Shown here piece by piece: positions 9,012 through 32,000 of a DNA stretch of 32,000 nt (position 1 is its first letter; the number at the start of each line of letters is the position of its first letter). The position numbers and the translations under genes are program-made. The stretch comes from an uncultured Phycisphaeraceae bacterium. GTDB lineage: Bacteria > Planctomycetota > Phycisphaerae > Phycisphaerales > Phycisphaeraceae. The stretch is from contig CAZSBB010000001.1 of the NCBI GenBank assembly GCA_964605235.1, forward strand, positions 68,841 to 100,840. The letters are read 5' to 3'. Below the pieces are notes generated by a model. The model was not told where the DNA came from. It saw nothing but the letters and a program-made list of their open reading frames with translations, and did not search any database.

Positions 9012-11114
9012 TCACTGCCACCAGACTGTCTCCCACGCCTCGGCTTCACGGTCGCTGATCCGCACGCGCTCGCCCTTGATCTGCAACCCGACGGGCGCGG
9101 GGGCAACCGCCAGCAGGTGCGGCCGCAGCACGGTCGCCAGACGCCAGCGCGAACCCGCCATCCGCAGCATCAGTTGGCCCATCGCATCGGGATACGGCTG
9201 GCCGGGCGCGACGGCGGCGGTGAACTCGCAGGGCGAATCCGTCGCGGCCACCAGTTGCAAGCCCACGCGCGACGACACCCGCCAGTGGGCGTGGAGCGCC
9301 TCCTGCACCCGGCCGCGCTGACGCTGGCGCCACTGGGCGTAGCCGATGCAGTCCGGCAGGGCGGGCAATCCCAGCGTGTTGGCTGCGTGCTCATCGCCGG
9401 CTGGCGTGTCAACGGTCAGCTTGCCATAGGCGTGAAACATCCAGCCGAAGCGCCGCGCGGTTGATGGCAGCGTCGCGCGACAATCATCGAGCACCAGCAG
9501 CAGGTCGCCGCGCAGGAGCAGGCGGCGGCGCAGCTCATACCCTTCGCCCACCAGCACGCCCTGCGCCCACGGCTCGTCGGCGTCCCCGCCCCAGGTCAGG
9601 TCGGCGCGGCCCATTTCGTTCTGCTCGTCGACGCAGAGCATGTTGTGCGCTGCACTGGTGCGGTAGTAACTCAACTCGGAGCCGCGTTGCCGCAGCGAAT
9701 AGCCCGGTTCGCCCAGGTCAGGCGCAATGAGTTCGCCCAGCGCGTGCAGCGTGAATTGCAGCCGATCGGGATGGTCGTGCCCGCTGATGGGCTTGCCGCA
9801 GCGAAAGGCGACTTGCAGCCGGCTGGGCGCGGAGCTGCGCAACACCCCGAGCTGCGCCACCGGCAGGAGCGTGGCACGGCGCGGCGGATCGGCGGGCGCG
9901 GGCAGTTCATCAGGACCAAACGCCAGTGCCGCCCAACCGGGACGCGCAGCCAGGCCGGCGGCGCGACGCTGGGCGGTCAGCGCGGCGACGACCGGCGCGA
10001 AGCGCGCCGCGTCCAGTTGCCCGGCGGCATACTCGTACAGGTGCGCGTAACGGGTCAGGTTCATATGCCGGGGATTGCCCAGGTCGCCCACCACGGTCAG
10101 CCGCCATTGGTCGTCGAGCAGTTGGAGCGGCGCAGCCGCCATGGCGCACAGCCGCTGCTGCAGCAGGTCATGGTCGGCCGCCGGACGGTGACGCTGGATT
10201 TCCCAAAGCCCCAGCAGCGGATACAGCGAGTAAAAGTGATAAAACAGCGTGCCTTCATACCAGAACCCGTCGCACCGCCCGGCGGCGTCGGCGGGCACGC
10301 CGGCGAGCAGTTGGCTGCGCAGGCCGGTCTGCTGCCCAAACGCCGGGGCGATCCAATCCTCGCGCTGGTAGAGGCGGCCGGCGGTCGCCAGCGCCAGGGA
10401 GACGAAGCACGACATGTTGTGGGTCGGTTGCCGACGCAGGAACTCGACCATGGTGGGCAGGCGATCCTCGAAGATGTCGCGGCGGATGGCGTCATGGTCG
10501 GCGGGGGTGAAGGCGGCGCTGCCGCGGGTCATTTCGTAGATCGCGCCGATTTGCGCCAGGATCGCAGCGTCGTACAGATTGCTGAAGTAGTGGGCGGGTC
10601 CGCCGGGGTCGGGGCGACGGGGCAACGGCAGGGCGAAATACGCCGCCGCCTGACGCAGACCTTGCGCGACCCATGCGGCATAACGCTCCTCACCCGTCAG
10701 TTGGTACAGCAATCCCACGCTGCGCAGCAGGCGGTAGGCGCGTTCATGGCTCAGCAGCACCCAGGCGCGCCGCTGGGCGTCGTCGCGTTCGCGCTGGTGC
10801 GTGCTGGGATCGAGGAAATCCTGCCCCCCCGCCGGCTCAAACACCAGATGCTCGCCGGTCTGCCGGGAGTAGAAATCGTGGCGCCAACCCGCCGGCTCCA
10901 TGACCAGCGTCGGAGGCGCCGCGAGCATGGCGTCCGCCTGCGCCCGCAACTGGTCCAGCAGCTCTCGTGCCCAGGCAAGTTGACCAACCTTGCGGCGAAT
11001 CTCCCCCACCACCGCCCCGGTGAAAAACAACCCGGGCCAGAAATCCTCCAGCAGCAAACCGGTGGTGGCGGGCGACAACAAATACGGCTCATGTCGAGCA
11101 AACGGGGCAGCCAT
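9012..11114 (-). CDS. heparinase II/III-like (alginate-lyase-superfamily) protein, no signal peptide
   Basis: 700 aa. The N-terminal half has (alpha/alpha)-toroid lyase-like motifs (WRHDFYSRQTGEHLVFEP, LLYQLTGEERYA). The C-terminal half has the heparinase II/III-type His cluster SGHDHPDRLQFTLHALGELIAPDLG and AAHNMLCVDEQNE. ATG 11114 lies 1 nt after the upstream stop, with GGAGG 8 nt upstream. Confidence 0.78.
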   Translation of the reverse strand: MAAPFARHEPYLLSPATTGLLLEDFWPGLFFTGAVVGEIRRKVGQLAWARELLDQLRAQADAMLAAPPTLVMEPAGWRHDFYSRQTGEHLVFEPAGGQDFLDPSTHQRERDDAQRRAWVLLSHERAYRLLRSVGLLYQLTGEERYAAWVAQGLRQAAAYFALPLPRRPDPGGPAHYFSNLYDAAILAQIGAIYEMTRGSAAFTPADHDAIRRDIFEDRLPTMVEFLRRQPTHNMSCFVSLALATAGRLYQREDWIAPAFGQQTGLRSQLLAGVPADAAGRCDGFWYEGTLFYHFYSLYPLLGLWEIQRHRPAADHDLLQQRLCAMAAAPLQLLDDQWRLTVVGDLGNPRHMNLTRYAHLYEYAAGQLDAARFAPVVAALTAQRRAAGLAARPGWAALAFGPDELPAPADPPRRATLLPVAQLGVLRSSAPSRLQVAFRCGKPISGHDHPDRLQFTLHALGELIAPDLGEPGYSLRQRGSELSYYRTSAAHNMLCVDEQNEMGRADLTWGGDADEPWAQGVLVGEGYELRRRLLLRGDLLLVLDDCRATLPSTARRFGWMFHAYGKLTVDTPAGDEHAANTLGLPALPDCIGYAQWRQRQRGRVQEALHAHWRVSSRVGLQLVAATDSPCEFTAAVAPGQPYPDAMGQLMLRMAGSRWRLATVLRPHLLAVAPAPVGLQIKGERVRISDREAEAWETVWWQ

Positions 11115-11115
11115 G

Positions 11116-12429
11116 TCAGGCCTCCGTCAAGTCCCGCACCAGCGCGAGCGCGGCACGATGGGCGGTGGACCATGCCCATTGGAAATTAAATCCGCCGATG
11201 CGTCCATCCACGTCCAGGATTTCACCCACCAGGTACAAGCCCGCACAGCAACGCGATTGCATGGTGCGATGGTCCAGTTCACTCAGCGGTATGCCGCCGG
11301 CGGTCACCTCGGCGTGGTTCCAGCCCCGATCGCGCAGCACAGGCAGTTCCAACTCCGTCAGCGCATGCGCCAACCCCCGGCGCGCCTCACGCGGAAGCTG
11401 CGCCCCCGCCCCCGGAGCCGCCCCCGGAGTCGCCCCCGGCAGTTTCAGGTGCGCACACAGCGCCTGCGCCAGACGCTGGGGCAGCCGCTGACCGAGCACA
11501 TTGAGCAAACTCGCCCGCCCCTGCCCGGCATCAATCAGCCATTTCTCCACGCCGGCGAAGTCGTCCTCCACCAGCGCCATCCGCAAAGCGAACGGCTGCC
11601 CGGCGGCGAGCGCGCCCAGACAGAAGCGGCTGGCGTCGAGCACCACCGGGCCACTGACGCCAAAGTGGGTCCACAGCATTTGCCCGCTGCGTTCGTCCAC
11701 CCGCTTGCCGGATACGAAGCTGCGCAGCGTCACCGGCTGGCTCAGGCCGGCGAGCTGGGCGTGAAAGAAATCTGACGCCAGCACCAGCGGCGCCAGCGCG
11801 GGGTAGGTGGGCGTGACGGTATGTCCCAGTGCTTGCGCCAGGCTGTAACCCTGCCCATCCGAGCCGGTGCGCGGCAGCGATTTTCCGCCGGTCGCCAGCA
11901 CCAGGCGACGACAGTGCAGTTCTCCCTGCGCGTGGCTGACGAGAAAGCCCGTGTCGTCCCGGCGCACCGACCGCACCCGGCAAGCCGTGGCGAGGGTGAC
12001 GCCCAGTTCGCCGCAGCGGCGCAGCAGGGCGTTGAGCACGGTGTGGGCGTCGTCGGTGGTGGGAAAGAGCTTGCCGGTCGGTTCGCGTTTGAGCGTGACG
12101 CCCAGGCTCTGGAACCAGGCGCTGGCGGCGGCGACGTCGAATCCCGCCAGGACATGTTTGATCAGGTGGCGTGGGCCGTGGTAATCGCGTTCGCTGACGA
12201 CGGCATGGGTGACGTTGCAGCGGCCCCCGCCGGCGACGAGGATTTTCGCCCCCAGGCGCGGCGCGCCATCAAGCACCAGCACCCGGCGAGGCCCCAACTG
12301 CTCGGCGGCAAACACCGCCGTCGCCAGCCCCGCGGCGCCGCCGCCGACGATCGCCAGGTCAACTTGAGGGTCGGTGGTGGAAGGAGCATGCATCACGCGC
12401 TGCAGCATACCGCCGACGGGGTCAGTCAT
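11116..12429 (-). CDS. HI0933/BaiN-type NAD(P)/FAD-dependent oxidoreductase
   Basis: DLAIVGGGAAGLATAVFAAE (GxGxxG), LGAKILVAGGGRCNVTH and C-terminal LYLVGEILDVDGRIGGFNFQWAWSTA are typical of the HI0933 flavoprotein family. The listed 527-aa ORF carries a spurious 90-codon 5' extension. ATG 12429 overlaps the upstream stop (ATGACTGA). Confidence 0.85.
   Translation of the reverse strand: MTDPVGGMLQRVMHAPSTTDPQVDLAIVGGGAAGLATAVFAAEQLGPRRVLVLDGAPRLGAKILVAGGGRCNVTHAVVSERDYHGPRHLIKHVLAGFDVAAASAWFQSLGVTLKREPTGKLFPTTDDAHTVLNALLRRCGELGVTLATACRVRSVRRDDTGFLVSHAQGELHCRRLVLATGGKSLPRTGSDGQGYSLAQALGHTVTPTYPALAPLVLASDFFHAQLAGLSQPVTLRSFVSGKRVDERSGQMLWTHFGVSGPVVLDASRFCLGALAAGQPFALRMALVEDDFAGVEKWLIDAGQGRASLLNVLGQRLPQRLAQALCAHLKLPGATPGAAPGAGAQLPREARRGLAHALTELELPVLRDRGWNHAEVTAGGIPLSELDHRTMQSRCCAGLYLVGEILDVDGRIGGFNFQWAWSTAHRAALALVRDLTEA
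11407..11442. repeat. in-frame 12-nt tandem repeat x3 inside the flavoprotein gene
   Basis: CGCCCCCGGAGC / CGCCCCCGGAGT / CGCCCCCGGCAG, plus a partial CGCCCC at 11401..11406. Encodes PGAT-PGAA-PGAG on the minus strand. Confidence 0.8.
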
Positions 12430-13150
12430 CTGCCACCGCACGTCGGGCGGTCCAGGCGCCCGCCACGGCTTCGTTGCGAATGCCCAGTTGTTTTTCCAGC
12501 AGACGTTCGAGGTACAGCGCGCCTTCGTCATTGGGCAGTCGGCGCAGCAGGGACACATCCTGTCCCTGTTGGGTGCGGAAGCGCACTTCATAGCTGTAGC
12601 TGGTGCCGTTCTTGGTGTGATGCGTGCGTCGCTTGCAGTAGAGTTGGGCGATGTCGAGGGGATCGAGCTGGCAGTTGCCGCGCCAGGGCAGGGGTTCATG
12701 GCGGACGGTCAGGGCCTGGGCGTCGAGGGTGATGCGGGTGCGGTTAAACAGCAGCGCGAGGATGAAGTAGATCAAACCCAGGCCGACCGCCAGATGCAGC
12801 AGCGGGAAGAGGGCGAAGAAAATCGGGGCGTTGCCGGAGAGTGCTGCCCCGATGAAGGTGAACACGATGCCGTTCCAGAACAGGGCGAAGGGGATGAGGA
12901 ACAGCACGATCCAGGAGAACCAGCGGCGCTGGATGGTCAGCGTGCGCCCGTCGTCGTGGACGGTCCAGCCTTTGGGCGGTTGCAGGTTCAGGGGCTGGGG
13001 TTCGTCGGCGGTGGGGTCGGCCGGGTCTGCGGGGGTCGTTGAGGTGCGAACCGTACACCCGCAGTAGTCACAGGTGGACCACCGCTGGGCATCAGGTGGG
13101 GGCAGCGCACTACCGCATTGGGGACACATCAGGCTGCGGGCGGGTTCCAT
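12422..13150 (-). CDS. zinc-ribbon membrane protein, unknown function
   Basis: N-terminal CPQCG...CDYCG (CxxC-N18-CxxC), a Pro/Asp/Thr linker, about three hydrophobic helices (WFSWIVLFLIPFALFWNGIVFTFIGAAL, IFFALFPLLHLAVGLGLIYFILALLF), and a soluble C-terminal domain. ATG 13150 has GGAGG 4 nt upstream. The listed ORF starts at ATG 13186. Confidence 0.65.
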   Translation of the reverse strand: MEPARSLMCPQCGSALPPPDAQRWSTCDYCGCTVRTSTTPADPADPTADEPQPLNLQPPKGWTVHDDGRTLTIQRRWFSWIVLFLIPFALFWNGIVFTFIGAALSGNAPIFFALFPLLHLAVGLGLIYFILALLFNRTRITLDAQALTVRHEPLPWRGNCQLDPLDIAQLYCKRRTHHTKNGTSYSYEVRFRTQQGQDVSLLRRLPNDEGALYLERLLEKQLGIRNEAVAGAWTARRAVADD

Positions 13151-19532: not shown

Positions 19533-21185
19533 TCAGCGTTCGCGCAGCACCACATAGCAGACGAACTGCGGGGCGAAACTGCCCGCCAGCGGCAGCGTGA
19601 TCGGCTGTCCGGTCCACGGCGTTTCCAGCACCGGCGCGCCCCAGTAGTCTTCGACATTGATGAAGCGGAAACGCTCGCCGGGTTTCGCCTGCCACAACTG
19701 CGCCAGGTCGAGAGGAATCGTGGACGCACCCGGCCAGTTGTAAATAATCAGATGGGCGCGGTCGAGTTCATAGGGATTGGGGCGCAGGTACACCCACGCT
19801 TCCTGCGGCGCGGTGGAGACGAATTCGCTGTGCGCGCCCCAGCCGGTGGCCTGCTGCCAATCCGCCAGGCTGTCGAAAGATCTGCCATCGCGGTAGATGT
19901 GCCGGGACGACGGAGCTCCCTCGGCGAAGTAGGTATTGCGGTCCAGTTCACTGCGGCGGGGATCGTAGCGCAGGTTCGGCGCCGCCTGGGGTTCCTCCAG
20001 GAAGTCCATCACGGCATCCCCCTTCGGCGCGACATAAAACGGATCGTCGCCCTGGGGACTGGTCATCATCAACCCGTAGCCGGTGTGGGTGTAGCAGCGG
20101 TTGTCGGTGAAGGTCAGGCGATGCCAGTTTTTGATTTCCACCGCGTTGAGACCGCCGACGAAGACGCTGTGACGGATCGCCAGCGTGCCGTTGTTTTTGG
20201 CGATGTAGCCAAAGTCCGCGCCGCGCTTGAAGCGTCCCGCTGAGCCGCCGCCCTGGGCGATCGCCGCCGCGACGGCCTGCTGCACGTCACCGCCGCCGAC
20301 GATGTGCGCCTGCTGCGGGAAATAGGTGTAGCAGTGGTCCACCTGAATCTGATTGGCGTCCTTGTGCCCGCCGAGCAGGAAGTTGACCACCGGGAGGGCG
20401 CTGCCGACAGGCAGGCCATTGCCATAGAGCACGCAGCCTTCGAAGCGGAAGTTCGCCTGGGCTTTTTCCTCGGCGTAGCCGTGCATGCCCCAGCCGAAGT
20501 TGTTGAAGATCAGGCACTCGCGAAAGGTCTTGGTGGTGTGGGCTTTGGTGTTCTGGGTGTAGATGCCATGCGATTGGGCTCTGGTGTCCCGCCCATTGCG
20601 ATAGAGCAGGCAGCCGGTGATCTCGTGGTCGTTGCCGATATCCCAGGCGCCGATGCCCGAGCGGTCGGGATTGTCGTGGATGATCAGGTTGATGAGCTTG
20701 ACGCCATCGCCGCCCGCCAGCCAGACCGCCCCGCCGCGGCGTGGAGGCAGATCGCCGCCGACGGTGACTTCCACCCCCCAGAGCCAGGTGTGCGAACCCT
20801 GGAGGGTCAGCACATGCTGCACCTCCGCAGCCGCGGTGATGGTCGCCCGCACCCCGGGCAGCGCGCGGTAGATGATTGGCTGCTCCGCGGTGCCGTTGAG
20901 CGCGGCGTTCTGCTCGAAGGGGCCTTGATAAGTTCCTGCCAGCAGCCAGATGGTGTCGCCGGGCGCGATGCGCTGGGCGTCGGTCAGCGCGGTGGCCAGG
21001 TCCAGCGGCGCGGCGCGCGTGCCCGGCGCGTCCGGCAAACCCTCGGGGCTGACGTACAACTCACGCGCCGAGGCGATGCCCACCAACAGCAACACGCCCA
21101 ACCCCGTCAACGCCATTCGCATGTCCAGCATCCTTATACGATCCATGGTGAAAAACAGCGGTCGGGGCGAGCAGCGCTGGTTCAT
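19533..21185 (-). CDS. secreted right-handed parallel beta-helix repeat protein (pectate-lyase-fold)
   Basis: LYVSPEGLPDAPGTRAAPLDLATALTDAQRIAPGDTIWLLAGTY is a typical beta-helix N-cap. PbH1-like repeats follow (LINLIIHDN, ITGCLLYRNG, CLIFNNFGWGMHG, FEGCVLYGNG). ATG 21185 overlaps the upstream stop (ATGA). An alternative start at 21122 (MRMALTGLGVLLLVGIASA) gives a cleaner signal peptide. Confidence 0.75.
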   Translation of the reverse strand: MNQRCSPRPLFFTMDRIRMLDMRMALTGLGVLLLVGIASARELYVSPEGLPDAPGTRAAPLDLATALTDAQRIAPGDTIWLLAGTYQGPFEQNAALNGTAEQPIIYRALPGVRATITAAAEVQHVLTLQGSHTWLWGVEVTVGGDLPPRRGGAVWLAGGDGVKLINLIIHDNPDRSGIGAWDIGNDHEITGCLLYRNGRDTRAQSHGIYTQNTKAHTTKTFRECLIFNNFGWGMHGYAEEKAQANFRFEGCVLYGNGLPVGSALPVVNFLLGGHKDANQIQVDHCYTYFPQQAHIVGGGDVQQAVAAAIAQGGGSAGRFKRGADFGYIAKNNGTLAIRHSVFVGGLNAVEIKNWHRLTFTDNRCYTHTGYGLMMTSPQGDDPFYVAPKGDAVMDFLEEPQAAPNLRYDPRRSELDRNTYFAEGAPSSRHIYRDGRSFDSLADWQQATGWGAHSEFVSTAPQEAWVYLRPNPYELDRAHLIIYNWPGASTIPLDLAQLWQAKPGERFRFINVEDYWGAPVLETPWTGQPITLPLAGSFAPQFVCYVVLRER

Positions 21186-24100
21186 GGCTGCACGCGCAGG
21201 TAAAGCGGCCCGGCGGTCAGTTGCGCCGCCGTAAGCCGCAGCTTGCTCCAGCCAGCCTGCGCGGGCACATCCGCTTGCCGCCACTGACGCTGATCCGTCG
21301 AAAACCCCAGCGTCTGGGCTGGGAAGGCAAGCTCCACATCCACATCGCCGGTGATCTCGAAGACCTGCGGCGCCACGCGACGCACGCTGATGGCAGTGGT
21401 TTTGGTCACCGTGTCCCCCGGGCCATACCACCAGGCGTGCATGACGCCGGCGGGGCCGAAGTCCGCCAGTTCCGGCAGCTTTTCGTCCACCACCTGCCAG
21501 CGCCCCGGCCCACACCGATTGACGCGCCAGAACCGCGTGGCGTCATCGTCCGTCGCCACCCATGTGCGCGGCACGGCCGACTGTTGATCGAGCCAACTGC
21601 CCAGACTGCACTGAATCTCCCGGCTTTCCGCGGCAATCGCGTTGATCGGCGACCGATACAACTCCGCGGTCAGCCGGGTGACGATGCGCGTGCCCGCACC
21701 TGCCGTCAGGTCCGCAGCGATATCCAACGCGGGCACCGCCGACCAGGTTGCACCGCTGCCGACGACGAGATTCCCCCCGCGCGGATCGCTGGGCCAGCTT
21801 TGATCGAGCCACAGCGTGCGCTGACGGTAATCCACGCGCACGATGCGCCCTTCGCGCCGGGCGGCCTGCGTTTTGATCTGCACCAACGGGCTGGCGAGCA
21901 ATGTGCCGCCGGTGAGCGCCGCCTGCCGCAGCCCCTGCTTGTCCTGCGAGTGGAAAGCAAATTCACCGGCCACACGGTAACCGCTCTCTGCCAACTCGCG
22001 CGGCTTATCCGGGCGACCGTCGGCAAAACACACATCCTGCCGACCATCCGCCAGTTGCACCCCCACCGCCACCGCCCGCAGGTGATCGGTCTCATTGTCG
22101 TTGACCGCCAGCGCTTGCACGGACTGGATCAACGGCTCACCTACATAGGCTTCAATGATGGCGGGGAAGACGGATTGCACCTGGCGTTCGCTGCTGCTGC
22201 GCTGCTGGACGTAGATGTGCGTCATGCCATAGTCCATGCGCTTGGAGATCGCCCGCGCACGCAGCGCCTGCGCGCCATCGGCTTCCAGCAGATGCAGGCG
22301 CACGAACTTGCGCGGCGAGTCGGGGTCGAAGTTGATCCCCAGCAACCGATTCTCCGTGCCGTACGCCTGGGCATCGCGGCTGTAGCGCCAGGTGGCGGTG
22401 AGTTGCCCGGCGATCTGGCCGGCGAATTTCGACTCCGGCGCTCGGCCGAAGATGCTCAGGTAATGCTCGGGGGACGCGACGGACGCCGGCCCCATCGCGC
22501 CGGCGTCAAAGCCCTCGGGCGCAGCGCCAACGGCACGCTCCGCCGAGACATTCCAGGTGAAAGCATCATCCGCCATGGCGTGGAAACAGAAGGTGTTGAC
22601 CGTGCCGGCCGCGGTGCGGGCGCAATCGAACAGGTAGGAGCCGGGCGTGACGTTCGCGCGGGGCTCAAGCTGGGGCAACTTCGCCACGGGGTATTGCTGT
22701 GCGATGGTGAGCGGCTGCGACGGCTGGCTGTGGTCCACATCAATCAACGCAGCCTGGCGACTAAAGTGCTGGCTGGCGATTTCCGCGAGCCCCCGCGCTG
22801 CCACATAACGCGCCTGCGGCGCATCGGACAAGCTGGTGATCCAGGCGTGAAAACGCTGCGATCGGCCGTCCCATTCCACGACATTATGAACCCGGCGAAT
22901 GGTGTCGGAAGGAACGGTGTAACCCAGACGCTGCCCCCCGTCGATCAGCATGGGCAGGCCATGGGCGACAAACTGCAGGTCGAGTGAATCGTCATGGTGA
23001 TGGCCATAGCCCAAGCCGGTGCGCAGGTAAGCCGCCCGACGGAAACGTGGGTCGTCATGCTCGTGTCCGGTTTCCAGAATGCCCGCCCAATTGGGCAGCA
23101 CGCGCGAGGGTTGGTCGAGCCACGGCGCGCGGTGCAGTTGCGCCGCGGCGGTTTCAATCGCCTGCCACTGGGCGTCGGTTTCGTTCTGGCGGCCCAGGTA
23201 GTGCTTGAGGATGAAAGCGAACAGGGGGTCGCCACTCCATTCCCAGCCGTCGCGCATCATGTGACGCATCTGCAGGTGCATGAAGCCGGGCAGTTTGTCC
23301 GGGCCGGTGACATCGCCGACGCGCACAAAGTCCCAGCCGGCGACAATGGCGCGCACCATCCAGTAGCAATGCGCCAGCGGCTTGGGATAACGCTGGGGGT
23401 CCATCAGGCTGTAGCGCGGGTTCCCGCCGGCGGCGAGGTAGGCTTCAATCGGCGCGACGATGGTGCGGGCGCCTTCCATCGCGCTGTAGTGCGACGACGC
23501 GCCGTTGCCGTAAGCCGGCCCGTCGGGGTCGGTGCCGCTGATGAGCGCGTCCTGGATGCCCGCCAGCGCCATGGGATAGTAAAACGTGCGGGAAAAGGCC
23601 CATTCCATCCAGGGATCGGTGATGGCGTTGTCGCCCAGCACGGTGGCGACGGTGACGATGGATGCGGGATACACCACATCGCAGTAGTGCAGTATCCGCC
23701 GCGCGGTGTGCTGCACGCCAAAGACATCCATCAGCATGATCAGATCGGAAGGCTGCTTGACCCACGGCACAAATCGGCCGACGGACTGAGCGAGTTCCTG
23801 GTTGTCCTTGATGTAGTCGTAGATCATGTCGTACGACTGGGCGATCCACTGATAGCTGCCGTAGTGGCCAAGGGCATAGGCTTCCGCGGAGCGATAGTGG
23901 AAGCGATCGCGGCCGTACATGCCGGTGGCGTGCACCGCGAAGGCGTGGTAATTCGCCGAGTCCAGCGCGGGCAGGCTGTAGGCGTAACGGATCAGCGCCA
24001 GCACCTGATCGCGCAGGCGGTCCTCGCTCAAGTCCGCAGGCCATTGGGAATCCGGGCGCGGCGTGAGATTCTGCAGGTAAAACTGCCGGTAATACTGCAC

Positions 24101-25318
24101 CGCGTCGGCAATCGGACTCCAGTACCAGCACTTGTTCGGATCACGCGGATCCGGTGTGACGATGCCCTCGCCCACATCCTTGAAGGGATACGGGTCCGGC
24201 AGCGGCTTGCGGGCGCGGAAATCCGCCACGGTGTATTTGAGGTTCAGCTTCTTGTTGATGATGAAGGCATCGTGGTACTGCGGATCGCTGAACAGGTATG
24301 CGCCGCGTCCGTCATGGGCCGGCGTCCATGCGCCGAATTGCGCCTCGATCTGCTCGGCGGTCAGGTTGGGCATGCCCTTGGTCACTTCCCGCGGGAACAT
24401 GACCGTGGGTTGCGATTGCTTGAACTGGTAGCCGGCGCCCTGGTCGTTGAGCAGGGGGAACAGCTCCCACAACGCGCGATCGCGCGCCAGGCGCTGCTCA
24501 GGGGTGTAAATGCTGGGTTTGCGCTGCGTCGGCGGCGCGGGCAGGTCGAGCGTGCGCCGCGTCTTGATCGGCCGGCGCACTGCCCCCGCCAGCACGTCGT
24601 CCACGGTGATGTTGTGCAGCAGCAATGGCACTTCGCTGCCTTCATCCACAGCCAGCGTCACGTGGTATTCGCGCGCGGCGGGGGCGTGAAAATACAGCTC
24701 AGCGATGCAGTAGAACGTGTCGGTGTAGTTGGCGCGGAAGCGCGTGGTCGTCACTTCGCCCGCCAGGCCGTCGTTGACCGTCAGGCGCAGGAACAGCGGT
24801 TTGCGGATCGGCTGCAGGTGCTGCGCTTCGACTGCGCCGATCACGCGCACGACGTACATGCCCCACGGCAATTGGCCCAGATCCAGCGTGAAGACGGGGG
24901 CGTTGGCCGTGACGCGCAGCACCGTGGCCGGGGGTTCCTGTGCCTCCTGCCGGGTGGCGCCGGCGCGCACCACGGCATATACCGGGGCGACATAACTCTC
25001 CGGCTTGAGCTGCGGACTTCCCGGCGCGACTGGTATGTGGGGCGCCACAAAATTGCGGAGCTGCGTACCCCGATCGAACAGGCTGCGCGTGGGGGTGTAC
25101 TTCATCCAGTACGCGCGCCAGTGCTCGACGGAGCCGGGGTACAGTTCCCACTCGGGGTGGTAGCCTTCGTAGGCGTAGCCGGGGGGGATGCCGGGCGGGG
25201 CGGCGGCGACGGGCAGGTTGACGCCCGCCAGTGGTCCGCCGATGCCGTATTCCTGAGCGTGAGTCACTGCGGTGAGGAAGCAGACCCACAACCCGATGAT
25301 GCATAACTGCAAGCGCAT
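21182..25318 (-). CDS. very large secreted protein with central heparinase II/III-like region
   Basis: About 1378 aa from ATG 25318 (MRLQLCIIGLWVCFLTAVTHAQE signal); the listed start is TTG 25336. GYGHHHDDSLDLQF at 22970..23011 matches the His-cluster motif of heparinase II/III-like C-domains and parallels SGHDHPDRLQF in the 9012..11114 protein. The flanking roughly 270-aa N-terminal and roughly 600-aa C-terminal regions are unrecognised. Confidence 0.7.
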   Translation of the reverse strand: MRLQLCIIGLWVCFLTAVTHAQEYGIGGPLAGVNLPVAAAPPGIPPGYAYEGYHPEWELYPGSVEHWRAYWMKYTPTRSLFDRGTQLRNFVAPHIPVAPGSPQLKPESYVAPVYAVVRAGATRQEAQEPPATVLRVTANAPVFTLDLGQLPWGMYVVRVIGAVEAQHLQPIRKPLFLRLTVNDGLAGEVTTTRFRANYTDTFYCIAELYFHAPAAREYHVTLAVDEGSEVPLLLHNITVDDVLAGAVRRPIKTRRTLDLPAPPTQRKPSIYTPEQRLARDRALWELFPLLNDQGAGYQFKQSQPTVMFPREVTKGMPNLTAEQIEAQFGAWTPAHDGRGAYLFSDPQYHDAFIINKKLNLKYTVADFRARKPLPDPYPFKDVGEGIVTPDPRDPNKCWYWSPIADAVQYYRQFYLQNLTPRPDSQWPADLSEDRLRDQVLALIRYAYSLPALDSANYHAFAVHATGMYGRDRFHYRSAEAYALGHYGSYQWIAQSYDMIYDYIKDNQELAQSVGRFVPWVKQPSDLIMLMDVFGVQHTARRILHYCDVVYPASIVTVATVLGDNAITDPWMEWAFSRTFYYPMALAGIQDALISGTDPDGPAYGNGASSHYSAMEGARTIVAPIEAYLAAGGNPRYSLMDPQRYPKPLAHCYWMVRAIVAGWDFVRVGDVTGPDKLPGFMHLQMRHMMRDGWEWSGDPLFAFILKHYLGRQNETDAQWQAIETAAAQLHRAPWLDQPSRVLPNWAGILETGHEHDDPRFRRAAYLRTGLGYGHHHDDSLDLQFVAHGLPMLIDGGQRLGYTVPSDTIRRVHNVVEWDGRSQRFHAWITSLSDAPQARYVAARGLAEIASQHFSRQAALIDVDHSQPSQPLTIAQQYPVAKLPQLEPRANVTPGSYLFDCARTAAGTVNTFCFHAMADDAFTWNVSAERAVGAAPEGFDAGAMGPASVASPEHYLSIFGRAPESKFAGQIAGQLTATWRYSRDAQAYGTENRLLGINFDPDSPRKFVRLHLLEADGAQALRARAISKRMDYGMTHIYVQQRSSSERQVQSVFPAIIEAYVGEPLIQSVQALAVNDNETDHLRAVAVGVQLADGRQDVCFADGRPDKPRELAESGYRVAGEFAFHSQDKQGLRQAALTGGTLLASPLVQIKTQAARREGRIVRVDYRQRTLWLDQSWPSDPRGGNLVVGSGATWSAVPALDIAADLTAGAGTRIVTRLTAELYRSPINAIAAESREIQCSLGSWLDQQSAVPRTWVATDDDATRFWRVNRCGPGRWQVVDEKLPELADFGPAGVMHAWWYGPGDTVTKTTAISVRRVAPQVFEITGDVDVELAFPAQTLGFSTDQRQWRQADVPAQAGWSKLRLTAAQLTAGPLYLRVQP

Positions 25319-25342
25319 GAGATTGATCCGTGGCAATACCTG

Positions 25343-25362
25343 GGCTGCAAACCAGTGCAGCC
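25343..25362 (-). other. intercistronic GC-rich stem-loop (7-bp stem, 6-nt loop)
   Basis: GGCTGCA (25343..25349) pairs with TGCAGCC (25356..25362). Lies in the 75-nt gap between the DUF1559 stop (25394) and the large-protein start (25318). No U-tract follows on the minus strand. Confidence 0.35.
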
Positions 25363-25393
25363 GCAGAGCGCAAGTTGGCGGTGCAATTGCTGC

Positions 25394-26200
25394 TCAGTAC
25401 GACGTGCCCGCGGCGTAGCTGAGTTCCCACCAGCGGGCGTTCCAGAAGCGGCTGGCGGTGTTGGCGTAGTAGGTGAAGCTGAGGGGGATCAGCGCACCGT
25501 GGCCGTCGAGGAAAACGAAATTGGTGGTTTCGCCGGGGTGGCGGGGATCGACTTCGTAGTTGGTGCTGTAGGGAAAGCGTTCGCCGATCAGGTAGGTGGA
25601 ATTGCTGACGCCCCCGGTGTCGCCGAGCATGACGGTCTGGCTGTGGGGCGAGCGGATGTCGTCGGGCCGAAAGCTGTACATGCGCTGTTTGGCGGCGATG
25701 CCCGCGCCGTCGCGCAGGGAATACAGCGTGCGGGCGGTGCCCCAGGCTTCCTTGTAGAACTGGTAGTTGACGCCGTAGCTCGTGTAGCGGTTGGTCGCCA
25801 GGTATTCGCCGCAGGCGTGCACTCCGGAGTGCCAGATGGTGCCGCTGGTGAAGGTCTTGCTCGGCGCCGGCAGGTAGTTCCGCCGCACCAGCGTATAGGG
25901 CCAGGGCACAGCTTCGCCCGCGGGCAGAGCGTAGGTCTGCACCACAGCTGCGGAGGCGTCGATCCGCGCGACCGGGTTTTCGGGATACAAGGGCGGAATC
26001 CGCTCGGTGAAGTCGCCGGCGTAGACATTCACCGCCTGCCCGTACTGCCGCAGGTTGCTGGCGCAGGCGATCATGCGCCCGGCGGCGCGGGCCTGCTGCA
26101 ACGCGGGCAACAGCATGGCGATCAGCAGCGTGATGATGGAGATCACCACCAACAGCTCGATGAGCGTGAACCCACGCCTCCGGGAATACCGGTCGTTCAT
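25394..26200 (-). CDS. DUF1559-type protein with prepilin-type N-terminal cleavage/methylation domain (pseudopilin-like)
   Basis: [38 protein letters not shown] is the class III signal G/FTLIE. A C-terminal [14 protein letters not shown] resembles the H-X9-DG motif. ATG 26200 is preceded by AGGAGA. The listed ORF has a 30-codon extension. Confidence 0.85.
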
Positions 26201-26274
26201 GGTGCTGTCTCCTGGGTCGGCACGGACGCCATGGGCATCATAAACCGCGGATGGTTCGGCTCCGTGACGAAGCA

Positions 26275-26309
26275 TTATCTTTAGTAGCAATGAACTTATC
26301 CTTTATGCG
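26275..26309 (-). promoter_or_regulatory. copy 1 of a 35-nt bipartite motif (TTATCTTTA-N18-TTTATGC on the plus strand)
   Basis: TTATCTTTAGTAGCAATGAACTTATCCTTTATGCG. Lies 75-109 nt upstream of the DUF1559 start. Matches 27556..27590 at 22/35, with an exact 9-mer and an exact 7-mer at identical spacing. Confidence 0.45.
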
Positions 26310-27529
26310 ATGCTGTCGGCGGTGCGCGGCGCGGCCAGCGGCGGAACCGTGGCCGGAGCCCCGTCCTGCGGGCCCGCATCCACCACCCACAAGCTGCGTT
26401 CCCCGGGCGTCGAGGTGTTGAAGTAAGCCCGCTGACCATCGCGCGACCAGGTCGGGTGCAGATGACAGGCGCGGTTGCTGTAGTCCGGCTGACTGACCTG
26501 CGCCAGCACCTGAAAATCCTGGTGCGCCACGTCGTACGCCACCACTGCTCCCAAAGGCTTATGCGGCCAGTTGGTGAGATCCACCACGATGCGCGTGCCG
26601 TCGTGGTTCACACAGGCGTGTTTGCCCAGCATGCGTTCGATCAGAGTCCAGCGGGCGCCGGTGTCGGGATCAAATGCGGTCAGGTCCTGCCCGCGATCGG
26701 GGCGATTGACGAAAGTGCAGATGATCGGCCGCCCGCTGCGGGGATCAACACCCCACATCGGATGATGCGCCTCCTCGCCGGCGTAGCGCAGGTTGCCGCC
26801 GTCGGCGTCGGCGACGAACACCGCGTGGACCCCTTCGCCTGGCTGCTGAAGCCGCGTCAGCGGGCTGGTGTTGCTCGCCATGACGAAGAACCGCGCCCCA
26901 TCGGGCGCCCACTTGGTATGCATGAACGCCAGATGCTCACTGCCGGGGAAGCTCACGCCCAGCGGGTGCAGACGCATCGCCTGCTCGAGCGTGAACAGCG
27001 GCGTCAGCCGGCCGGCGGTCAGTTCCATCCGGCATACGGTGTCATCCAGATGGCGCGCCGGCGGGTCATAATCATGGCTGGTGGTCAGGCCGACGGGCGC
27101 CGTGGGGCTGAGCATGCGCAGCGCCCCAGCCATTTCCCGCTGCGTGCCGTCGGTCAGCGACACCAGCACGGTGCGCAGGCTGCCCGGCGCACCATCGCAA
27201 AAGGCAATCGTGTCATCATCCACCCAAAGCTGTCGCGCCCCGGCATGGCGCTCGGCGTGTTCGAGCCGGGCGACCTGGCGCGTCATCCCGGTGGCGACCT
27301 CCACCACGCACACCGTCCCCGGCACGTCGACCAGCGGAACTTCCGGGGGGCGGTCGAACGCCACATACACCACCCGCCGGCCGTCGGGGCTTTCGGGGCA
27401 GACGTCGTAGTAGAAGTGGATCGCATGCACGCCCGGAGGCGTCAATCGCGTCAGCTTGCGCACTGCAGTCATGCCTGTTCCCTGTATGGACGAGCCGGTG
27501 GGTCCGGCGGCGATTTCATGGTACGGCAT
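26303..27529 (-). CDS. beta-propeller protein (TolB/PD40-like; oligogalacturonate-lyase-like by eye)
   Basis: Recurrent blade signatures: CPESPDGRRVVYVAF, KWAPDGARFFVMAS, VNHDGTRIVVDL, HPTWSRDGQRAYFNT. No signal peptide. An alternative start is 27472 (MTAVRKL). Confidence 0.6.
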   Translation of the reverse strand: MPYHEIAAGPTGSSIQGTGMTAVRKLTRLTPPGVHAIHFYYDVCPESPDGRRVVYVAFDRPPEVPLVDVPGTVCVVEVATGMTRQVARLEHAERHAGARQLWVDDDTIAFCDGAPGSLRTVLVSLTDGTQREMAGALRMLSPTAPVGLTTSHDYDPPARHLDDTVCRMELTAGRLTPLFTLEQAMRLHPLGVSFPGSEHLAFMHTKWAPDGARFFVMASNTSPLTRLQQPGEGVHAVFVADADGGNLRYAGEEAHHPMWGVDPRSGRPIICTFVNRPDRGQDLTAFDPDTGARWTLIERMLGKHACVNHDGTRIVVDLTNWPHKPLGAVVAYDVAHQDFQVLAQVSQPDYSNRACHLHPTWSRDGQRAYFNTSTPGERSLWVVDAGPQDGAPATVPPLAAPRTADSIA

Positions 27530-27555
27530 CCGACTCGCTGCCCCAGCAAAATTGG

Positions 27556-27590
27556 TTATCTTTACTGATGAGATTCTTTCCGTTTATGCC
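27556..27590 (-). promoter_or_regulatory. copy 2 of the 35-nt bipartite motif, in the AraC/propeller divergent spacer
   Basis: TTATCTTTACTGATGAGATTCTTTCCGTTTATGCC. Ends 3 nt before the AraC ATG (27593). Lies 27-61 nt upstream of propeller start 27529, or 84-118 nt upstream of 27472. Confidence 0.45.
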
Positions 27591-27592
27591 CA

Positions 27593-28495
27593 ATGGACAT
27601 ATCCATGAAATCGCCCCCTCTGGTGCTGGCGGACCTGCAGTTCAGCCGCTGTCAGTATCGCCTACGCCAGCCGGGCTGGACCTATCCGCCGGCGTACCAC
27701 CGCGACCTGTGGGAAATCTATGTGTGCTGGCAGGGACAATTCGAAGTCGGACAGCGCGGCCGGGCGACCGTCATCACCGCGCGCCAGGCGCTGGTCATTC
27801 CGCCGGGGCGCGCCCATGACGCGCGGGTGCTGGGCGAAGACCCCGCGCTGATCGGGATCATCCTGTTTCGCGCCCGCTGTCCGCGCCTGCGCCGTCGCGC
27901 CTTTGCCGCGCTGCCCCTGGCGGGACGCCGACTGGACCGGCTGCGGCAGTTCATGAACGAGCGCGGCCACGACGCCACCGCCGCCCAGCGACGTCTCGCC
28001 CTGCTGACCCTGTTTCTCCTCGATCTGGCGGAACCCGCCGCCCCGCCCACGACGCCGCACGCCCATCGGCTGCAGATGCTCGCGCCTTACGCTCAAGACC
28101 CGCTGGTGGAGCGCGTGCTCGAACATCTGCTGGAACGGCTGCCCGATGGCCTGGCGCTGGAGGAACTGGAAACCCGCACCGGTTACGGCGCCAGCCGGCT
28201 GCGCCAACTCTTCCGCCAGCGCACCGGCATGAGCCTGCGCGACGCCATGATGCAGTTGCGCCTGGAAGAAGCGCAGCGCCTGCTGCTGTTCTCGGGGCTG
28301 AAAATCGCCGCCGTCGCCCACATGGTCGGGTTCCGCCAGACCCCCAAATTCAACCAGTTCTTCCGCCGCTGCTGCGGTTGCTCGCCCACGCAGTTCCAGC
28401 GCTCGGGCGTGCGCTTTGGCGAAAAATGGGGCGAGGAAGCCGACCACAATGAAGTGCAGTTGCCCGCCGGCGCGTTACGTCGCCCGCGCCGCTGA
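27593..28495 (+). CDS. AraC family transcriptional regulator (cupin-like N-domain plus HTH_18)
   Basis: C-terminal dual HTH: LEELETRTGYGASRLRQLFRQRTGMSLRDAMMQLRLEEAQRLLLFSGLKIAAVAHMVGFRQTPKFNQFFRRCCGCSPTQFQ. The N-domain VIPPGRAHD is cupin-like. An alternative start is 27605. Confidence 0.88.
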   Translation: MDISMKSPPLVLADLQFSRCQYRLRQPGWTYPPAYHRDLWEIYVCWQGQFEVGQRGRATVITARQALVIPPGRAHDARVLGEDPALIGIILFRARCPRLRRRAFAALPLAGRRLDRLRQFMNERGHDATAAQRRLALLTLFLLDLAEPAAPPTTPHAHRLQMLAPYAQDPLVERVLEHLLERLPDGLALEELETRTGYGASRLRQLFRQRTGMSLRDAMMQLRLEEAQRLLLFSGLKIAAVAHMVGFRQTPKFNQFFRRCCGCSPTQFQRSGVRFGEKWGEEADHNEVQLPAGALRRPRR

Positions 28496-31380: not shown

Positions 31381-32000
31381 ATGGTGCAGGTTCCCCGCTG
31401 GCTCGCGGTGTATGGCAATCGGCGGATGGCGGCGCTGGTGGGCCTGGGTTTCGCTTCCGGGTTGCCCGGCGCGTGGGCGCTGTTTGGGACGCCGCTGCAG
31501 GCGTGGCTGCTGGACTGCGGCTATGAAGTCAAACAGGTGACGTTGGTGGGGCTGGTGAGTTTGCCGTTTGCTTTCAACTTCGCCTGGGCGCCGCTGCTGG
31601 ATCGCTTCGCTCCGCCCGTCTTTGGCCCGTTGGGACGCCGGCGGGGTTGGTTGGTGTGGATTCAATTGCTGTTGGCGGTCGGCATCGCCTTGCTGGCGGC
31701 GGTGGGTCCGCGGCAGGCGGGAGACTCCTTGCTGGCGCTGACGCTGGTGGGGCTGGTGGTGGCGACGCTGGCCGCGACGCAGGATGTGTTGTGCGATGCG
31801 TACCGCACGGAGGTGTTGGGTGATGACGAACTGGGCGCGGGCGCGGCGGTGTACGTCAACGGCTACCGCCTGGCGATGCTCGCGGCCGGGGGTGGACTGC
31901 TGTATCTGTCGCACTGGGCGTCGTGGCCGGTGCTGTTTGCCGCGCTGGCGGGGGTGATGGCGTTGTGTCTGCTGGTCACCCTGCTGGCGCCACGCGAGCC
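31381..32000 (+). CDS. ampG: AmpG-family muropeptide MFS transporter, N-terminal fragment running out of the window
   Basis: Not in the ORF track because it has no in-window stop. My translation: MVQVPRWLAVYGNRRMAALVGLGFASGLPGAWALFGTPLQAWLLDCGYEVKQVTLVGLVSLPFAFNFAWAPLLDRFAPPVFGPLGRRRGWLVWIQLLL...ATQDVLCDAYRTEVL. This matches AmpG hallmarks (LGF.SGLP, F.WAPL.DR, LGRRRGW, TQD...DAYR.E). GGAG lies 10 nt upstream. Confidence 0.85.
   Translation, partial: MVQVPRWLAVYGNRRMAALVGLGFASGLPGAWALFGTPLQAWLLDCGYEVKQVTLVGLVSLPFAFNFAWAPLLDRFAPPVFGPLGRRRGWLVWIQLLLAVGIALLAAVGPRQAGDSLLALTLVGLVVATLAATQDVLCDAYRTEVLGDDELGAGAAVYVNGYRLAMLAAGGGLLYLSHWASWPVLFAALAGVMALCLLVTLLAPRE

Follow-up and report, generated by a model that had tools for sequence, protein, structure and literature searches.

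The locus analysed here spans positions 19533-28495 of a 32,000-nucleotide stretch of contig CAZSBB010000001.1, from an uncultured bacterium of the Phycisphaeraceae; the whole stretch is called the window below, and its G+C content is approximately 66%. An earlier interpretation made from the letters alone (the sequence-only reading) had described four consecutive genes on the minus strand that diverge from an AraC-family regulator gene, and all five open reading frames (ORFs) were confirmed at the coordinates given there. The regulator, an AraC/XylS-family protein with an N-terminal cupin domain of the sugar-sensing type, is encoded on the plus strand (27593..28495). The four co-oriented minus-strand ORFs, running from 19533 to 27529, encode a signal-less PD40-type beta-propeller (26303..27529), a prepilin-type, DUF1559-like pseudopilin-like protein (25394..26200), a large secreted multidomain protein (21182..25318, or 25336 with an alternative start) and a secreted right-handed parallel beta-helix protein (19533..21185). 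The cluster is likely to be an inducible module that degrades a uronate-containing (acidic) polysaccharide, and thus a counterpart of a polysaccharide utilisation locus (PUL) of the type found in the PVC group. This group, the Planctomycetota and Verrucomicrobiota with their relatives, contains major degraders of complex and acidic polysaccharides; to our knowledge its members lack the SusC/D logic of the Bacteroidota, and their glycan loci are poorly understood.

The longest ORFs of the minus-strand genes encode 408 (propeller), 269 (pilin-like), 1384 (large) and 550 (beta-helix) amino acids. For the beta-helix gene, ATG 21122 (529 aa) is a more likely start than 21185, because an AAGGA Shine-Dalgarno-like site 9-12 nt upstream, the N-terminus of the orthologue and the database gene call agree on this position; the gap to the large-protein gene would therefore be about 59 nt. 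The letters do contain the ATGA overlap at 21182-21185 that had been noted earlier, yet the two genes probably do not meet there. A start at 27472 (389 aa) is more likely for the propeller gene, because its relatives are about 365 aa long, and the AraC gene more likely starts at ATG 27605, as judged from the alignment of orthologues. By inspection, Sec signals were recognised on the large and beta-helix proteins and a class III signal on the pilin-like protein, and the propeller carries none. A scan for promoters and terminators gave nothing above the shuffled expectation. The block is flanked downstream by an Rrf2/qNOR/ScdA module and upstream by a cytochrome-c membrane pair, both of which are unrelated to it.

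The large protein (1378-1384 aa, depending on the start at 25318 or 25336) begins with the Sec signal peptide MRLQLCIIGLWVCFLTAVTHA followed by QE. Residues 1-1200 were modelled with AlphaFold2 (AF2) from an alignment of 77 sequences, giving a predicted local distance difference test score (pLDDT) of 91.3 and a predicted template modelling score (pTM) of 0.91. The domain order is a beta-sandwich resembling carbohydrate-binding modules (CBMs) at approximately 85-241, a small alpha/beta region, an (alpha/alpha) toroid at approximately 400-735, an antiparallel beta-sandwich from 739 to approximately 1000, and further beta domains. The N-terminal sandwich gave weak CBM6/16/35/36-like matches in Foldseek. 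A toroid followed by an antiparallel beta-sandwich is the architecture of polysaccharide lyases (PLs) of the PL15/PL17/PL39/PL40 type, and every one of the 17 Foldseek matches at E ≤ 0.001 was a two-domain polysaccharide lyase, GAGase II included. These comprised PL40 Uly1040 (9vtk, E 1.7e-17), PL17 Alg17c (4nei/4ojz, about 1e-16), PL15 Atu3025 (3a0o, 1.7e-11), PL21 heparinase II (2fut, 1e-9) and PL12 HepC (4mmh, 2e-8), with target-normalised template modelling (TM) scores of 0.41-0.59 against the five families. The lyase-type fold expected by the sequence-only reading, which had proposed a Foldseek search on an AlphaFold model, was thus borne out. In common with Uly1040, Alg17c, PL39, PL15 and PL21, the protein combines the toroid and the sandwich with a cleft at the domain interface. 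It differs in being about twice as long, by virtue of the N-terminal CBM-like sandwich, the extra alpha/beta region and about 400 additional C-terminal residues, and in having no detectable sequence similarity, even by family profile, to any lyase of solved structure.

Residues that could form a lyase active site are conserved in the family. By hhalign, the segments GYGHHHDDSLDLQ...IDGGQ...VHNVVEWDG were aligned to the GH-x-H-x-D...D-x-G...HN core of a PL17-like protein, a motif that is kept in the window copy. Among the 77 aligned sequences, the putative metal-site residues H773, H775, D793 and H811 are conserved in 73, 76, 73 and 75, respectively, and Y611, D669 and Y800 in 76, 70 and 72; N812 is likewise conserved (within 70-77 of 77), and all eight are present in the window protein. 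Y611, D669, H773, H775 and Y800 are spaced like Y305, D358, H485, H487 and Y511 of Uly1040, a correspondence drawn from motif and spacing rather than from superposition. In Uly1040, the catalytic base is activated by a His-Asp-His-metal tetrad and the acid is a Tyr (PMC12915356); a similarly spaced His-x-His pair, Asp, metal site and catalytic Tyr can be assigned in the large protein by motif and spacing. The protein is put forward as a possible polysaccharide lyase whose family has yet to be described.

This family comprises 439 representative clusters (50% identity) at E ≤ 0.001 among 1.84 billion proteins. Its members are annotated as hypothetical proteins of about 1300-1430 aa from metagenome-assembled genomes of Planctomycetota, Verrucomicrobiota, Kiritimatiellia and Armatimonadota, and ten paralogues occur in the source genome. 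Some members reach about 1800 aa; Pfam recognises HEAT/armadillo repeat domains in P0038, P0068, P0081 and P0083, and P0271, P0275 and P0276 have an extra 420-510 residues, approximately, N-terminal to the lyase-like body.

The beta-helix protein matched Pfam Beta_helix (E 2.8e-9), and its AF2 model (pLDDT 90.3) is a right-handed parallel beta-helix whose top Foldseek matches were PL9 rhamnogalacturonan lyase BT4170 (5olr, 1.2e-8), Pel9A (1ru4, 6.6e-7) and PL31 alginate lyase PsAly (6kfn, 6.9e-7); all of these are secreted proteins of the same fold. The TM-scores against PL9 and PL31 are only 0.45-0.62. A 39-sequence profile searched against the PDB found PL31 (6kfn, 5e-10), GH120 (3vst, 3e-9), PL9 BT4170 (5olq, 9e-8) and PL6 enzymes, and the alignment with PL31 includes a G-x-G-[HE]-G-I-Y segment. 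The lyase-type fold proposed earlier was therefore recovered both by structure and by profile, with PL9 and PL31 as the leading lyase families. The Pel9A-like model PF22842 was among precomputed matches for the protein and was absent from the Pfam scan at E ≤ 0.1; the NCBIfam PelX match was partial (28.7 bits against a cut-off of 1490). A lyase is our best guess, a hydrolase being less likely.

The sole Pfam match of the propeller was PD40, just below the gathering score (E 4e-4, 20.8 bits). When a profile of 39 propeller sequences was compared with the PDB, the best match was the PL22 oligogalacturonate lyase YeOGL (3pe7, E 3.5e-13), followed by 3c5m (VPA0088, 2e-9), in agreement with the earlier suggestion that the propeller might be oligogalacturonate-lyase-like. 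The alignment is collinear and places H237, W240, H285, H337 and H339, which are invariant or nearly so in the propeller family, on YeOGL H242, W245, H287, H353 and H355. Of the YeOGL residues, H242, H287, H353 and H355 are reported to be the catalytic base and three His ligands of Mn2+ (Abbott et al., 2010); each of these four positions is a His in the aligned 3pe7 sequence. The corresponding propeller residues H237, H285, H337 and H339 are conserved in 36, 39, 35 and 39 of 39 relatives, and all are present in the window protein, so that a catalytic His and a Mn-binding His triad of the PL22 kind (with the roles as reported) are in place. The propeller shares with YeOGL and VPA0088 a length of about 370-390 aa, PD40-type repeats and presumed cytoplasmic location; PL22 enzymes act in the cytoplasm, and the missing signal peptide agrees with this. 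The protein is therefore described as a putative, distant PL22-like oligo-uronide lyase.

The regulator matched Pfam HTH_18 (1.4e-19, 70.6 bits), Cupin_2 (1.7e-7, 31.3 bits), AraC_binding (9e-5, 22.7 bits) and HTH_AraC (30.5 bits), all above their cut-offs, so that a double helix-turn-helix and a cupin are both present; it is one of 30 AraC-family ORFs in the source genome. A pattern search of both strands of the 5.86-Mb genome with the 34-bp bipartite motif GCATAAA-N18-TAAAGATAA found exactly two copies, both within the cluster and on the operon strand. Copy 1 (26309-26275) ends 75 nt upstream of the pilin-like ATG at 26200, and copy 2 (27590-27556), in the divergent spacer between the AraC and propeller genes, stops 84 nt short of the propeller ATG (27472), so that each precedes one of the two transcription units. 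Copy 1 contains the direct repeat GGATAAG-N14-AGATAAT with a 21-bp period, and the AraC/pilin-like spacer of a related metagenomic locus (L075) contains AGATAAT-N14-GGATAAT with the same period. The pair of motifs and the RGATAA repeats fit an operator for an AraC dimer placed before two co-regulated units, and GCATAAA-N18-TAAAGATAA is put forward as a candidate operator of this regulator. Elsewhere in the source genome, at C6:102026 (-) and C25:12560 (+), GGATAAGTACATT...GGATAA was found with RGATAA repeats about 21 bp apart; these sites may be operators of paralogous AraC regulators.

The pilin-like protein carries a class III (prepilin) signal with G-F-T-L-x-E and matched N_methyl (E 1.2e-8) and TIGR02532 (27.9 bits against a cut-off of 16.3). 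Its earlier assignment as a DUF1559 prepilin-type protein holds for the prepilin signal but not at threshold for DUF1559 (PF07596), which reached 19.1 bits, short of its gathering score of 23.3, and matched residues 65-101 only. The H-X9-DG model was absent among the NCBIfam matches at E ≤ 0.1, and the C-terminus reads H-X10-DG.

The gene content of the module recurs in metagenomic relatives: genes for the regulator, pilin-like protein, propeller and beta-helix protein were found together in five organisms, with a large-protein gene adjacent in two and nearby in a third. At L075/L085, an AraC gene diverges from pilin, beta-helix and propeller genes, whose products share 49, 37, 49 and 51% identity, respectively (AraC first), with their window counterparts; the AraC identity extends over the full length, and the beta-helix identity is to the neighbour of the propeller orthologue. 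The loci L076/L077 and the contig carrying P0105 encode GntR, pilin, propeller and beta-helix proteins, with large-protein homologues within about 5 kb of the module at L076. At L084, the module consists of GntR, pilin, a 1403-aa large-protein homologue (45% identical), propeller and beta-helix genes. The conservation of the block, which the sequence-only reading had proposed to look for, extends to gene content, whereas gene order is permuted and the regulator may be of the AraC or the GntR type. A 1309-aa gene at the end of L075 was considered as a large-protein homologue and rejected as not homologous.

The conserved module was seen because the search was started from the propeller (found in 5 of 401 genomes of the phylum), which is rarer than the large-protein family; the latter occurs in variable contexts. 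A tblastn search of 59 large-protein-family loci with the beta-helix, pilin, propeller and AraC proteins found matches in 5, 8, 0 and 0 loci, respectively, and BLAST clustering of 721 ORFs neighbouring the large-protein family revealed no widely shared neighbour. Propellers at ≤ 36% identity (25 metagenome loci and four genomes of the phylum) were unlinked to the other genes of the module. The flanks of the related modules were also recorded: GFO/IDH/MocA oxidoreductase, HpcH/HpaI aldolase, GDSL esterase and AXE1-like esterase genes lie at L076 (12825-15334 and 19990-20661) and L075 (5534-6691), and a sulfatase gene lies beside the module on the P0105 contig. These flanking genes hint at an acetylated or sulfated acidic substrate.

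Taken with the lyase-fold matches, the conserved gene content supports the PUL-like interpretation already offered from the letters, and the following course of events is proposed. The AraC/cupin regulator would sense a breakdown product and bind both direct-repeat operator copies, whose RGATAA half-sites are paired 21 bp apart, driving two units: the propeller gene, and the pilin-like, large-protein and beta-helix genes. The large and beta-helix proteins would be exported via their Sec signal peptides and depolymerise the substrate outside the cytoplasm, the former presumably by beta-elimination with the Tyr and His-Asp-His-metal arrangement that its fold and residues share with PL39, PL40 and PL17. 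Oligomers would then be imported by a transporter encoded elsewhere and split to monomers by the cytoplasmic PL22-like propeller, by means of its three-His metal site and catalytic His, and the monomers would feed a 2-keto-3-deoxygluconate (KDG)/Eda-type route. The pseudopilin-like protein would be a conserved, module-specific part, processed by prepilin peptidase and assembled by a type II secretion system (T2SS) or a type IV pilus-like machine, and would serve either export of the enzymes of the operon or glycan capture.

Several observations weigh against this interpretation. The thresholds of curated sequence families are reached by none of the three enzymes. For the large protein, there was no Pfam match at E ≤ 0.1 and no NCBIfam match, and searches of the PDB with phmmer and with a 36-sequence family profile gave no match at E ≤ 10 except one chance match; because all of these searches gave nothing, only fold comparison placed the protein. 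Its earlier description as heparinase II/III-like is thus upheld at the level of the fold and of the family, in which 21 of 36 relatives weakly matched PF07940 (Hepar_II_III_C, best 4.8e-6), but not by a Pfam match of its own. The carboxylate-neutralising Asn of PL17 and PL40 (N201 of Alg17c, N245 of Uly1040) was not located in the large protein: the stretch 55-65 residues upstream of Y611 contains no conserved Asn, and there the family has R544-Y545-H546 and the window protein H-Y-C. The window copy also deviates at the near-invariant family residues R544H, H546C, R598P and H908N. The propeller profile scored nearly as well against TolB proteins (about 1e-11); its alignment with PL22 covers residues 215-357, the C-terminal 40% only; the Gln350 metal ligand of YeOGL is not conserved in the propeller family; and the Pfam PL22 model PF14583 matched 9 of 39 relatives at E ≤ 0.1 and not the window propeller. 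Foldseek matches of the beta-helix protein further included GH136, BT_1002, GH120, the C5-epimerase AlgE4, PL6 and phage tailspikes, the glycoside hydrolases and the epimerase scoring close behind PL9 and PL31. Finally, genes for import and for the downstream pathway are lacking at the locus, and KduI and UxaC, the classical pectin partners of PL22, were not found in the 96.5%-complete source genome. Their absence from the search results argues mildly against classical pectin catabolism; KDPG aldolase is present in the genome.

In the window protein and its two closest homologues, L084 and P0261, R598 has been lost and a GNG insertion adjoins Y611, the putative catalytic Tyr; the window and L084 proteins are sister sequences among 89 family members (support 0.973). 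The two changes therefore look like a subfamily signature, which sets the window subfamily apart from the two-domain lyases compared above, and they probably reflect specificity rather than decay.

It is unlikely, in our judgement, that at least one of the lyase-fold proteins is something other than a lyase, the beta-helix protein being a glycoside hydrolase, or the large protein either a hydrolase or, without catalytic activity, a protein for binding or scaffolding, in which case the substrate need not contain uronate. The proximity of the GH120 (3e-9), GH136 and BT_1002 E-values to those of PL9 and PL31 would fit such an assignment, as would the residues conserved in the beta-helix family, which are E118, H149, E167, H185 and Y188 rather than the PL9-type catalytic Lys and Ca-binding Asp cluster; the four near-invariant residues lost from the large protein and its want of sequence-level PL membership point the same way. 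The unanimity of the structural matches of the large protein, together with retention of its His-x-His/Asp/His metal site, D669 and Y611, argues for a lyase instead, and three different lyase-type folds, one of them a propeller with the active-site His of PL22, occur in one conserved operon.

The surroundings of the enzymes bear on whether the polymer is foreign. As the sequence-only reading had remarked, no SusC/D, ABC or TRAP transporter was found among the scanned window ORFs of at least 150 aa (Pfam), and the window scans likewise showed no KDG-pathway genes at the locus. This lack of importer and catabolic genes, together with the results for KduI and UxaC, could be explained if the module remodelled or recycled an acidic exopolysaccharide, capsule or holdfast of the cell itself, in the manner of AlgL/AlgG-type lyases and epimerases, with the pilin-like protein as part of a secretion fibre; among the fold matches of the beta-helix protein there are, moreover, a mannuronan C5-epimerase, AlgE4 (2pyh, E 2.6e-5), and a biofilm lyase, RbmB (9ozl). 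We consider such a role quite improbable, given that neither the window nor any of the five related loci has a glycosyltransferase, polymerase or export gene adjoining the block, that a divergent AraC/cupin or GntR regulator of the sugar type and a cytoplasmic PL22-like enzyme are typical of catabolic loci, and that the esterases, sulfatase, oxidoreductase and aldolase of the related loci are catabolic partners.

Degradation of an external acidic polysaccharide is retained as the preferred interpretation, and the place of the pilin-like gene in it can be assessed from its distribution. About 162 prepilin-type/DUF1559-like ORFs, approximately 3% of genes, occur in the 5.86-Mb source genome, and outside this genome a pilin-like gene lies directly upstream of only 1 of 41 large-protein homologues (regular-expression test). 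It is nevertheless very improbable that the gene is a bystander, adjacent by chance to a functional unit of enzymes and regulator only: it occurs between regulator and enzymes in all five related modules; the window and L075 proteins are each other's best match, with 137 bits as compared with 75 bits for the highest-scoring of about 161 paralogues in the source genome; 4 of the 10 large-protein paralogues of the source genome (C1:94234, C9:87249, C9:64499 and C14:56858) are immediately preceded on their own strand by a pilin-like gene, far above the 3% background; a motif copy precedes the gene; and a pseudopilin of Verruconatronum alginivorum is induced by alginate (PMC13274419). The source genome encodes a prepilin peptidase, four secretins and several T2SS-F platform proteins. 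In another organism, positions 1-17228 of L004 hold a tandem arrangement of an N_methyl protein, a 1361-aa protein, a 969-aa beta-helix protein, a 1381-aa homologue, an N_methyl protein and a 1359-aa protein, so that pairing of pilin-like and giant proteins is repeated within one locus.

Among published systems, the nearest analogue is a lyase cluster of V. alginivorum that is induced by alginate and includes a pulG-like pseudopilin. There, genes for the secreted two-domain lyases PL39 and PL15 adjoin a pseudopilin gene with dozens of paralogues, and a pseudopilin is over-expressed on alginate (PMC13274419). Both systems belong to the PVC group and place lyase-type genes beside a much-duplicated pseudopilin gene. 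The window module differs in enzyme families, regulator and phylum, and adds the PL22-like propeller and the beta-helix protein. With the SusC/SusD-type PULs of the Bacteroidota it shares a regulator and co-localised secreted and intracellular enzymes for one glycan; unlike them, it has no SusC/SusD or transporter in the block and has a pilin-like gene where a binding or uptake component might be expected. Specific to the module are three lyase-type folds unrecognised by curated models, a private orthologous pilin-like gene, a large-protein subfamily linked to the module, and the candidate operator.

A more far-reaching proposal is that the pseudopilin-like protein is a dedicated, substrate-specific part, either a fibre or tip subunit that routes the enzymes of the operon through the T2SS or a glycan-capturing protein comparable to SusD or solute-binding proteins, and that new PL families, acting on a uronate polymer, are represented by the subfamily of the 1378-aa protein, with its R598 loss and GNG insertion, and by the propeller. 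This is possible but doubtful at present, and is offered tentatively; if it were true, each of the hundreds of such genes in the PVC group would mark a 'pilus-assisted' polysaccharide utilisation unit. Independently of this proposal, the module provides a compact, conserved, regulator-linked test case in which a DUF1559 pilin-like gene has a clear orthologue and partners. It also brings to light two enzyme families, the approximately 1380-aa family and the PL22-like propeller, that fold-level evidence places among polysaccharide lyases and that curated sequence models miss, and it yields a candidate operator for an AraC regulator. Should the activities prove true, there would be a gain for the CAZy lyase families and for how PVC genomes are annotated.

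Two further features of the window were noted. The sole transporter-like match was a fragment of the major facilitator superfamily (MFS_1, Acatn, AmpG-like) at 31381-31998 (+), at the window end and beyond the cytochrome-c pair, which is probably unrelated to the cluster. Approximately 8 kb from the cluster, at 9012-12699 (-), a gene for a signal-less 700-aa Hepar_II_III_C protein (E 2.3e-11) directly follows an HI0933-like flavoprotein gene. An hhalign comparison of the large-protein family with this heparinase-like protein (9012-11114) extended over 103 columns at 19% probability and was set aside, being of use for the H-x-H motif only. The 700-aa protein has weak similarity to PL17 alginate lyases (9irq, 2.5e-7), and with the flavoprotein gene it forms a second, separate lyase-like unit.

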